A stretch of DNA of 64,000 nucleotides from Eledone cirrhosa. Taxonomy: Eukaryota. Shown here piece by piece: positions 58,357-61,089 of this stretch. Both the position numbers and the translations under genes were made by a program. The notes below the pieces were generated by a model, which worked only from the letters and a program-made list of their open reading frames with translations, ran no database searches and was not told where the DNA came from. The stretch lies in contig OZ024762.1 in assembly GCA_964016885.1 (NCBI GenBank), positions 22,258,001 through 22,322,000 of the forward strand. The letters are read 5' to 3'. The first letter of the stretch is position 1; the number at the start of each line of letters is the position of its first letter.

Positions 58357-58750
58357 GTGTTTTTGCTGTTGTCGTTGTGTTTTTACTGTAGCTGTTGTTT
58401 TAGTTGTTGTTGTTGTCAATAGGGTGTTGGTATCAGCACGACTATTGTGACCAGTGTAGATAACTTTGGTCGGCGGTTTGATGTTATTGTTGTTATTGTA
58501 GTTGTCGTTGTTGTTGTTGTCTATAGGTGGTCGTCAACTAAATGTATACCCCACCCTCCTCAGAGCTCCTTGTGTTCCTTCAACCTTCTACTAGGTTTTG
58601 GTTGCACACGGTTCTTCCTTCTTTTCGTCTTTTTTCGTTGATAGCTTTTTCTAACAAACGCGACGGCTGGCAAACCCTTCAAAGAACTAATATGTCTGCT
58701 GGGCACACAGGCATTAGGATGTGTGTTTCCCTGCCAGCGGCATATCAAAT

Positions 58751-58859
58751 ATATCGATCTTCATCTGAGGAAACCGTTCTCATAATCAACAGCAAATGCA
58801 TGAAGGACATCTCGATTGCATGGAGAACCGTAGAAATAATTATTATGATTAACCGATAT
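58751..58859 (+). ncRNA. Type I hammerhead motif in the upstream pseudo-LTR
   Basis: atatcg..TCAT-CTGAGGA-long stem II (ttctc..aatc/gatt..gagaa)-GAAA-TAATTA-TT-ATGA..cgatat. Confidence 0.65.
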
Positions 58860-59032
58860 ATGTAGCCTCAGCATCTTATTTTATTATTTTCATAAAATTC
58901 TCCATCGTAATTAAAACAACGAATGTTGAGAGCTTTCTCCTGCTTACTCCTCTTTTTACCAAAACAATCTTTTCCCAACACATACAGCCCCAGCACTGTT
59001 GAGCACTTTGAGAATAAGCGGCTGAAAATAGG

Positions 59033-59725
59033 ATGCAATCTTCTAACATCTCCGAGTCCCTGAAGGACATTCCCTTGCCCAGCAAAAAGGAGTACACCAT
59101 ATAGCTAATCCTTAAAAGAGACTCGTTTGTACGCAGAATGCGATGGAACGCCTTCCACTACGAAAGGAAAGCCCGTGAGAAGACGCAGCGCGCAAATACC
59201 TCTTCCTCTATTGGTAACGTCTTAGACCGTGAAATACGGGGGAATCACACAACGCGTTCCGGTGATACAGGCGGCAACACCCCTCTGGGCTGTAATTGTA
59301 GAAACCCCGGTAGCTGCCCCCTGGAGGGTAGATGCCTCGGCAGTGGCTTAGTATATGAATGTAGGGTGAATACCAGCAACCATGCCTTCACCTAAATCGG
59401 AGCCACGGCTAATAAGTTTAAGGAAAGCTGGTACAATCACTGCCACACCTTTAGGAGGGCGGATAAGAAGCACAACACCGCCCTCTCGGAACTAATGTGG
59501 CGTCTCAAACGGGATAACGTAGAATTCACCATGTCGTAGTGCAAGGTAGCACCGGATCAGCCCTACAGAGAGGGTGGACATGACTTGTGCGATTTGTGTG
59601 CCACCGAGATTATGGAAATAATCAAGAGGGGAGCTCGAGTTATCAATAAAAGGAGTAACCTCTTCAGCACCTGCCTCCACAGATCTTCTGGAACCTTCCT
59701 CAAACTGTACGGACTAGCAACGTAG
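59033..59725 (+). pseudogene. PLE N-terminal domain fused in frame to GIY-YIG endonuclease, no RT; 3 in-frame stops
   Basis: MQSSNISESLKDIPLPSKKEY..LILKRDSFVRRMRWNA...CNCRNPGSCPLEGRCL..LVYECRV..*IGAT..FKESWYNH..TALSELMWRLK..CDLC..E..INKR..CLH; stops at 59102, 59393 and 59537; no frameshift. Confidence 0.8.
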
Positions 59726-61089
59726 AGGTGCTAGTTGAACACTTTTGCAATCTTGTCCGTGGAAGCCGGGCATAGCCTCGCAGCAGCCTCAGCGTAAGGC
59801 GAACCTTGGATATCTTGTTTGCACACCTGGAGTCTAATGTGTGCTTGTTTCTTGTCCTTTGTTCCCTATTCCTCTGTTTATATACCTACTGTTGTTTTTT
59901 TATGTATTTTATCCCGTTCCTTTATTATTGTGTTCTCTATATGTGTTCTCGTTTCTTCTATTTGTTCCTGTTCCTACTTTCGCTTCCCGTAACCCTCTTC
60001 CATGGCCTAACAGCCCTTTTGATAGTATTGTTGCCACTGTGGTTGGGACTGAATGCTATGATCATTGCTGGCCTTGTGCCTTCCAATGATAGAGGAGGAT
60101 TGTATTAACTGGGAATGTTTTTATATATATAAATACCCATCTATGTTTTCTATCCCATTTTCACCTCCTTGTTTTCAACGGACTACTATTGTGGTTAGTT
60201 TAATTTTCATGGAAGCGTGGTTTTTTTCCTGTTTCGGCCATCGCCGTGGTGGGGGTAATCGCTGGTCCTGTTGCTGTTATTGGTGTTACCAATGGCTTAA
60301 TACTGACATAGTTGATACCACTACTACTGCGACGAACGGGATGGGTGATGTTGGTGTTTGTTGCCGTTGTCATTGTTGTTGTTACTGTTTATGGTCATGG
60401 TGATTGATACCACCAGCTCTGTGTACCCTCCTACCTCTAAACTCCTTTTTATTGCTTTGGCGTTATCGCTGTTTACGGTCAACAGGGTGGTACCGTCTCT
60501 GCGACGTCTACGACCTGTATACACGACGCTTGTCTGTGATTTTGATGTTGATGTCGTTTGTTGCTGTTGTCGTTGTAAATGTTTTTACTGTAGCTGTTGT
60601 TTTAGTTGTTGTTGTTGTCAATAGGGTGTTGGCATCAGCACGACTATTGTGACCAGTGTAGATAACTTTGGTCAGCGGTTTGATGTCATTGTTGTTATTG
60701 TAGTTGTAGTTGTCGTTGTTGTTGTTGTCTATAGGTGGTCGTCAACTAAATGTATACCCCCACCCCCTCAGAGCTCCTTGTGTTCCTTCAACTGTCTACT
60801 GGGTTTTGGTTGCACACGGTTCTTCCTTCTTTTAGTCTTTTTTCGTTGATAGCTTTTTCTAACAAACGCGACGGCTGGCAAACCCTTCAAGGAACTCATA
60901 TGTATGCTGAGCGCACAGGCATTAATTAGGATGCGTGTGTTTTCCTGCCAGCGGCATATTAAATATATCGATCTCCATCTGAGGAAACCATTCTCATAAT
61001 GAACAGCAAATGCATGAAGGACATCTCGATTGCATGGAGAACCGTAGAAATAATTATTTTATTATTTATATATATATGTATACATATAT

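Follow-up and report, generated by a model that had tools for sequence, protein, structure and literature searches.

Analysis of the window, a 64-kb stretch of microsatellite-rich, animal-type DNA, led to a frame at 59033-59725 (+) that we read as the remnant of a Penelope-like element (PLE) of the Hydra clade. Specifically, it would be a dead copy, with the reverse transcriptase (RT) and thumb deleted in frame, of a multi-copy non-autonomous family that is moved in trans and carries its remaining ORF as a passenger, a reading to which we assign a probability of roughly 0.47. The frame holds 230 codons, with in-frame stops at codons 24, 121 and 169, and comparison with its relatives confirmed it, at the level of sequence, as the N-terminal RWK box of a Hydra-clade PLE joined to a CxCX5C knuckle and a GIY-YIG endonuclease (Table 1). 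Against profiles of full-length relatives (model length 715), aa 1-53 align with model positions 1-53 (E-value = 3e-15 to 5e-15), while aa 82-222 align with positions 567-707 of the profile of 13 relatives (E-value = 4e-39); a profile of 135 full-length ORFs split the frame identically. Approximately 510 model positions, corresponding to RT and thumb, are absent between the two intact ends, and neither profile (13 or 135 ORFs) matched its RT part in any of the six frames of the whole 64-kb window, which also holds no second copy of the ORF. The RT-less fusion of N-terminus and GIY-YIG originally predicted from the letters is therefore upheld by the two-part match. A phmmer search of 1.84 billion representative proteins returned 2953 matches at E ≤ 0.001, the best being P0002 (713 aa) with 42% identity over two aligned stretches, aa 1-61 and aa 86-218. 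Pfam did not recognize the protein of the frame and a PDB sequence search gave nothing relevant; no significant Pfam model was obtained for full-length Hydra ORFs either (0/4; P0002, P0012, P0191 and P0204), although thousands of relatives exist in protein collections.

Table 1. Features of the element, in window coordinates.
Feature	Position	Strand	Remarks
Left pseudo-LTR, 3' end of a 5'-truncated upstream unit, to the cleavage site	58360..58844	+	Preceded by (TG)n(TA)n
Type I hammerhead motif, complete topology	58761..58848	+	Core at 58765; predicted cleavage after 58844
Leader/tail 3' of the hammerhead	58845..59032	+	Two GAGCACT-like boxes, ~105 and ~32 nt before the ATG
Hydra N-terminal domain, aa 1-53, RMRW box	59033..59191	+	Stop at codon 24; conserved columns kept 10/13
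Linker in place of RT and thumb	59192..59290	+	Faint trace of thumb motif SYSC..HN from 59201
CxCX5C knuckle and Hydra-type GIY-YIG with CxxC, CxH	59291..59725	+	Conserved columns kept 28/37
T-rich non-coding 3' region, unusually long	59726..60557	+	Covered by organism A contigs
Right pseudo-LTR, ends at or near the hammerhead cleavage site	60558..61058	+	Followed by AT-rich sequence, then (TA)n

As defined by Craig et al. (2021), the Hydra clade is characterized by an RWK motif, a CxCX5C linker, and CxxC and CxH around conserved Glu/Asn residues (PMC8557442). Its members have also lost the CCHH, insert in (TA)n and bear canonical hammerheads, and they are known from octopus, cnidarians, sea cucumber and copepod (PMC8557442). 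The window element shares with the clade, as described there, the RWK-type box (RMRW at aa 35-38, with Lys changed to Asn), the CxCX5C linker, a GIY-YIG domain with CxxC and CxH around the conserved E and N, the absence of CCHH, insertion in (TA)n, a partial tandem layout with a hammerhead near the 3' end and a unit below 3 kb; it differs in having neither RT nor thumb, in a stop-to-hammerhead distance of 1254 nt, in a 41-nt loop II and in an A/U-only stem III (PMC8557442). With all the non-RT features of the clade present, the element is, by these motifs, a Hydra-clade PLE by descent. It does not classify as an autonomous one, given that its ORF bears no RT or thumb and its catalytic residues are not intact. 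Compared by eye, the printed N-terminus of Hydra-1_Obim looks no nearer to that of the element than those of other Hydra ORFs (PMC8557442).

The two pseudo-LTRs were originally described as direct repeats of about 490 bp ending in a hammerhead. The repeats themselves stand, being 96% identical (466 identities, 18 mismatches and 18 gap columns), and since they differ by 3.7% they do not represent a duplicated read; the left hammerhead is complete, but the right one has no stem I 3' strand. The 2214 nt reported between equivalent cleavage sites was recovered exactly (58844 and 61058). Boxes like the GAGCACT boxes of the leader are found at the tandem junctions of RT-bearing Hydra loci, the proximal one in 14/14 and the distal one in 12/14, some of these loci being redundant, and may be an RT start or promoter signal; no mention of them was met in the literature consulted. 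In these 14 tandem loci (L002, L004, L006, L008, L009, L012, L015, L016, L019, L021, L022, L031, L038 and L048) the hammerhead lies ~180-220 nt before the ATG and the boxes ~30 and ~90 nt before it. From stop to hammerhead the distance is 66-196 nt in 12 of the 14, versus 1254 nt in the window unit, and RT-bearing L002 has a likewise long spacer of 1.1 kb. No homology to Hydra ORFs was detected in any frame of the T-rich region that makes up most of this distance.

The window copy itself is dead, since it bears three stops and a conserved Arg has been replaced by Ser. Two of the stops were predicted to fall on the Tyr of YIG and on a conserved Trp, and they do: codon 121 corresponds to the YIG Tyr (conserved in 99%) and codon 169 to the Trp (96%), while the column of codon 24 is without high conservation. 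The Ser at residue 132, also noticed originally, replaces an Arg present in 99% of the 135 ORFs. Among the endonuclease columns conserved at 80% or more, nine of 37 are lost in the window copy, against a median of 2 in RT-bearing ORFs; affected are, among others, the YIG Tyr (stop), Arg132 (Ser), Trp169 (stop), Lys193 and Glu209. Glu192 and Asn205 are kept, and every Cys/His ligand of the endonuclease is intact.

Related copies were detected in a second genome, organism A, for which three runs of one sample contain 23-29% of the sampled words, no RNA run being among those listed; two of these three runs and two of three RAD runs were compared with 58360-60560 at 80% likeness. Contigs of organism A span 30/30 bins and are mostly 90-95% identical to the window sequence; 8-9 of them lie at 59100 and 27-28 at 59395, summed contig depth not being a copy number. 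Position 59395 reads Tyr throughout (623/623 and 523/523 of contig depth; 13/13 and 9/9 raw reads), and 59538 reads Trp mostly (241/255 and 265/273), the window allele being rare there. Because organism A reads Tyr and mostly Trp at these positions, both stops appear specific to the copy or lineage of the window, and because the window allele is missing at 59395, organism A is without this particular insertion and represents an independent genome. Among eight of its ORF variants, seven change the residue and one is silent. Joints at 60554->58409 and 60543->58378 reveal an identical layout of 3' region and pseudo-LTR. We thus consider a repeated family probable rather than a one-off, and of the non-autonomous family originally proposed the RT-less derivative of a Hydra-clade PLE stands, while the family remains a probability supported by the multiple copies of organism A and by the two stops that are reverted in it.

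The behavior of the 3' end in organism A can also be followed. Past 58967 and 58986 the alignments give way to (CA)n/(TA)n, so the usual 3' end of the family is probably near 58986, ~140 nt past the hammerhead, which fits the internal start of reverse transcription described for PAc (PMC11167929). Over 58730-58990 the summed depth reaches 8,000-21,000, versus 76-960 over the ORF; the hammerhead-plus-tail end is far commoner than the coding part, partly due to a second family that shares 58919-58967. Read ends of the RAD runs at 58838-58841 and 58896 were considered as ribozyme cleavage and rejected, since they fall on AATT sequences and were taken as restriction sites of a presumed enzyme.

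Whether the whole family lacks the RT depends mainly on the linker. Every one of the 135 RT-bearing ORFs carries the thumb motif SYSC..HN, with scores of 19.7-56.6 bits and a start 28-51 aa (median 31) ahead of the knuckle. The window linker lacks it in all three frames, and a search for a frameshifted motif there found none. The best score in any frame was -13.4, from an in-frame site at aa 57, at a distance of 30 aa from the knuckle; 77/5000 and 28/1000 shuffles reached it, and the sub-motifs taken alone were non-significant. From the RW box to aa 57 there are 18 aa, which is also the median for the variable segment that follows RW. The deletion point is likely near 59170-59200, and the simplest reading would be that the deleted part ended near 59200 and that what was left of the thumb then decayed. 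The multi-copy linker of organism A matches this motif-less linker at 80% or more, its copies thus being probably without a working thumb, and by codon count at least 8 changes in 48 nt are needed to turn the window linker into the motif. One contig of organism A covers 58917-59154 and another 59201-59425 at ~90%, the latter tying linker to endonuclease. On these grounds loss of the RT throughout the family seems to us quite likely.

Nevertheless, the same data bear on an alternative that we regard as unlikely, namely that the family is an ordinary Hydra one, RT-bearing and with a long 3' region, in which one copy suffered a unique or rare internal deletion, the frame being kept by chance. None of 16 listed organism A pieces (of ~3970) bridges 59154-59201, all of them stopping at 59154 or starting at 59201, and the latter end could be a branch point to RT-bearing copies; 24 of 745 loose ends were listed, so that their silence at the junction carries no information. 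Summed depth also falls from the linker bin to the N-terminal bin two- to four-fold, from 287 to 76 (X1) and from 196 to 102 (X3), for which RT-bearing copies could also be a source, and neighboring bins elsewhere differ in depth as much as at this step. Such a family would agree with the long spacer of L002 and with Adineta Penelope, which is also described as internally deleted (PMC3846280). An RT-bearing element, however, requires the thumb motif directly ahead of the knuckle, where all 135 ORFs have it, and the linker shared with organism A lacks it.

Deletions comparable to that of the window were sought among other Hydra sequences. A metagenome scan with N-terminal patterns yielded 49 loci, of which one, L001 (coverage ~1), has the RWK box joined directly to the knuckle but out of frame, and the remaining ones run on into RT or are cut off. 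L001:60-540 represents an independent deletion of a whole RT in a Hydra element, the two sides meeting at a short AAC/TAAC stretch common to both. Nine loci matching aa 1-217 within ~900 nt proved to be head-to-tail RT-bearing units and not fusions. A first protein search gave no relative among 61 candidates of 126-403 aa, nor did single-protein scans of metagenome and viral contigs or an alignment scan of the viral contigs. When 2552 proteins of up to 403 aa were screened with a profile of the N-terminal and endonuclease parts, no in-frame fusion was present among the best 120, although two-domain proteins would be expected at the top of this ranking, and both parts were also absent from 136 other short proteins. 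P0280 and P0281, two top short matches, were ruled out as endonuclease duplications. P0288 carries a different internal deletion, in frame, and together with L001 it suggests that internal deletions arise sporadically in Hydra copies, as the one-off alternative would have it. Across the 49 loci and the short proteins examined, the in-frame architecture of N-terminus and endonuclease did not turn up beyond this family. No RT-bearing autonomous partner was found in the protein collections, where the best endonuclease identity was 42-43%.

Under the preferred reading of a trans-moved family with a passenger ORF, a partial-tandem master would be transcribed as a read-through RNA, the helper protein of an intact Hydra element would recognize that RNA via the pseudo-LTR/leader, and insertion would take place by target-primed reverse transcription at (TA)n or (CA)n. 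In Adineta, pseudo-LTRs are described as sufficient in cis for the trans mobilization of unrelated intervening DNA (PMC3846280), and a PLE protein has been reported to nick AT-rich DNA and to prime reverse transcription from unprocessed RNA (PMC11167929). The retained frame need not be required, because the helper's own endonuclease would suffice. Against a trans-moved family stand the junction at 59154-59201, unbridged among the listed contigs, the depth step and the missing partner; against a passenger ORF, the unequal decay of linker and endonuclease.

This unequal decay is what speaks for a second unlikely alternative, an RT-less family in which selection has kept the N-terminus/endonuclease protein to bind its own RNA, nick (TA)n and recruit the RT of an intact element, as a split enzyme. 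The thumb remnant keeps 3/8 conserved residues versus 38/50 in the N-terminus and endonuclease (Fisher p = 0.04, post hoc and with an uncertain alignment), as if constraint had been lifted from the remnant only, which would be the sole hint that the endonuclease has been under selection. Whole domains are left untouched at either breakpoint and the frame is kept, the ATG and leader boxes lie at the usual spacing, the faint in-frame trace sits almost at the median distance from the knuckle, the Cys/His ligands are complete and the organism A variants are nearer to the Hydra norm (Tyr121, Trp169 and Ser170). The thumb trace is weak, however, and the linker may consist of two variable regions joined together; the window copy has Ser in place of Arg132, and an intact fused protein was not found in the protein searches. 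The reconstituted PLE is also described as having RT and endonuclease in one polyprotein, a helper thereby already bringing an endonuclease (PMC11167929). As for the original suggestion that the family supplies its own endonuclease, the window copy does not bear it out, its endonuclease being dead (stops and Ser132).

It was also proposed that the unit passes through a 2.2-kb self-cleaved or circular RNA. Propagation as a 2214-nt hammerhead-excised circle, in the manner of a protein-coding retrozyme, would be compatible with the other readings, yet we hold it for improbable. In its favor, the left hammerhead is complete, with the core, a stem I of 4 bp, 8/9 pairs in stem II after the first position and a palindromic stem III; a topology scan found the complete motif in 0/2000 Markov-simulated sequences, and the layout resembles the Hydra hammerheads of File S2 of PMC8557442. 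It is atypical in its 41-nt loop II, a C-C mismatch in stem II and the A/U-only palindrome of stem III; no Rfam hammerhead model matched it, Rfam giving chance miRNA/snoRNA matches only, and the hammerhead fold has -7.1 kcal/mol versus -12.1 for the lowest-energy fold. The right copy has its core at 60979, no stem I 3' strand and one extra mismatch in stem II, and is accordingly predicted to be an incomplete ribozyme, so that only the left site would be cleavable, as monomer or dimer. The right end coincides with the cleavage position, but a 37-nt deletion between TTATT repeats would explain it equally well. A circular template has been proposed for PLEs (PMC4209133), while the organism A copies appear to end ~125-140 nt beyond the hammerhead and metazoan retrozyme circles are described as ~170-400 nt (PMC7229834). 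In the sole PLE studied biochemically, insertion is reported as independent of hammerhead cleavage, mutants of the hammerhead still inserting in vitro, and Anolis RNA-seq reads are described as without ends at the hammerhead site (PMC11167929). The proposed 2.2-kb RNA is thus unsupported at this locus, where the second hammerhead cannot form stem I, and a double-cleaved circle, as far as the predicted structures go, cannot arise from the locus as it stands. That a misassembly joined two ends of an element is hardly credible, for although the window is highly repetitive and microsatellite-rich, with N gaps, the linker sequence is unique within it and present in organism A contigs and raw reads.

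Several of the features combined here are already known separately, as non-autonomous PLE derivatives, retrozymes, R2 SIDEs and stand-alone endonucleases of Terminons. The pseudo-LTR-flanked segments of Adineta vaga (PMC3846280) and non-autonomous Chlamys elements such as MRC1 (PMC8557442) are likewise pseudo-LTR-bounded, dependent on a helper RT and non-autonomous, but the cases in the available texts consist of host DNA, 3'-end similarity or broken single copies, with no in-frame fusion of N-terminus and endonuclease among them (PMC3846280; PMC8557442). Non-LTR retrozymes share the type I hammerhead, the tandem layout and a proposed dependence on PLEs, and are described as non-coding, 170-400 nt long and with a hammerhead per unit (PMC7229834; bioRxiv 10.64898/2026.07.22.740005). 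The window unit, of 2.2 kb with an ORF remnant and a single complete hammerhead, does not classify with them, and its original description as intermediate between PLEs and retrozymes may be retained as a fair analogy. In Terminons, GIY-YIG ORFs also stand separate from the RT, yet they reside inside giant RT-bearing elements and carry CCHH (PMC6431247; PMC8557442), while R2 SIDEs are similarly ribozyme-bearing, internally deleted parasites but are described without an ORF (PMC6765202). In the literature outside Repbase and most subscription papers, no RT-less, endonuclease-retaining Hydra family was found.

The mechanism of PLEs is poorly known, only one element having been reconstituted. If a family does keep the RWK box and endonuclease without RT, these two pieces would form a separable module and offer a direct test of RT/endonuclease complementation in trans. 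If the mini-protein were selected, it would be a targeting nuclease of the element's own working with a borrowed polymerase, and two separate polypeptides could share the task of PLE integration. Should the frame be a mere passenger, the case would be of modest interest and would simply add to the internally deleted non-autonomous retroelements. Such families would escape pipelines in which RT and endonuclease must occur together, as described in bioRxiv 10.64898/2026.07.22.740005.

Other repeats were observed around the element. One repeat lies on both sides of it, at 57944-58312 and 61085-61370 (~86% identical), arranged as a fold-back at the left and as a short inverted plus direct piece at the right. 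A target duplication is unlikely, as the two are too diverged, and two independent insertions into one microsatellite hot spot are the likely origin. Hammerhead-like cores in fold-back or single stubs occur at 57690-57900, 56070-56422, 61880-62040, ~1665-1880, ~7065-7200 and ~27070-27110; they belong to other repeat families, most of them in or beside (TA)n, and are likely 3'-end stubs of other PLEs. On the minus strand, 47685-48999 bears two open frames that resemble a non-LTR (LINE) retrotransposon in its RT and C-terminal part. Finally, a stub of the hammerhead family of 57768-57910 lies at 36409-36490, followed by (TA)n and a 156-nt piece at 36574-36729, which is 79% identical to the post-hammerhead leader of the element and ends in (TA)n at the equivalent of ~58984.
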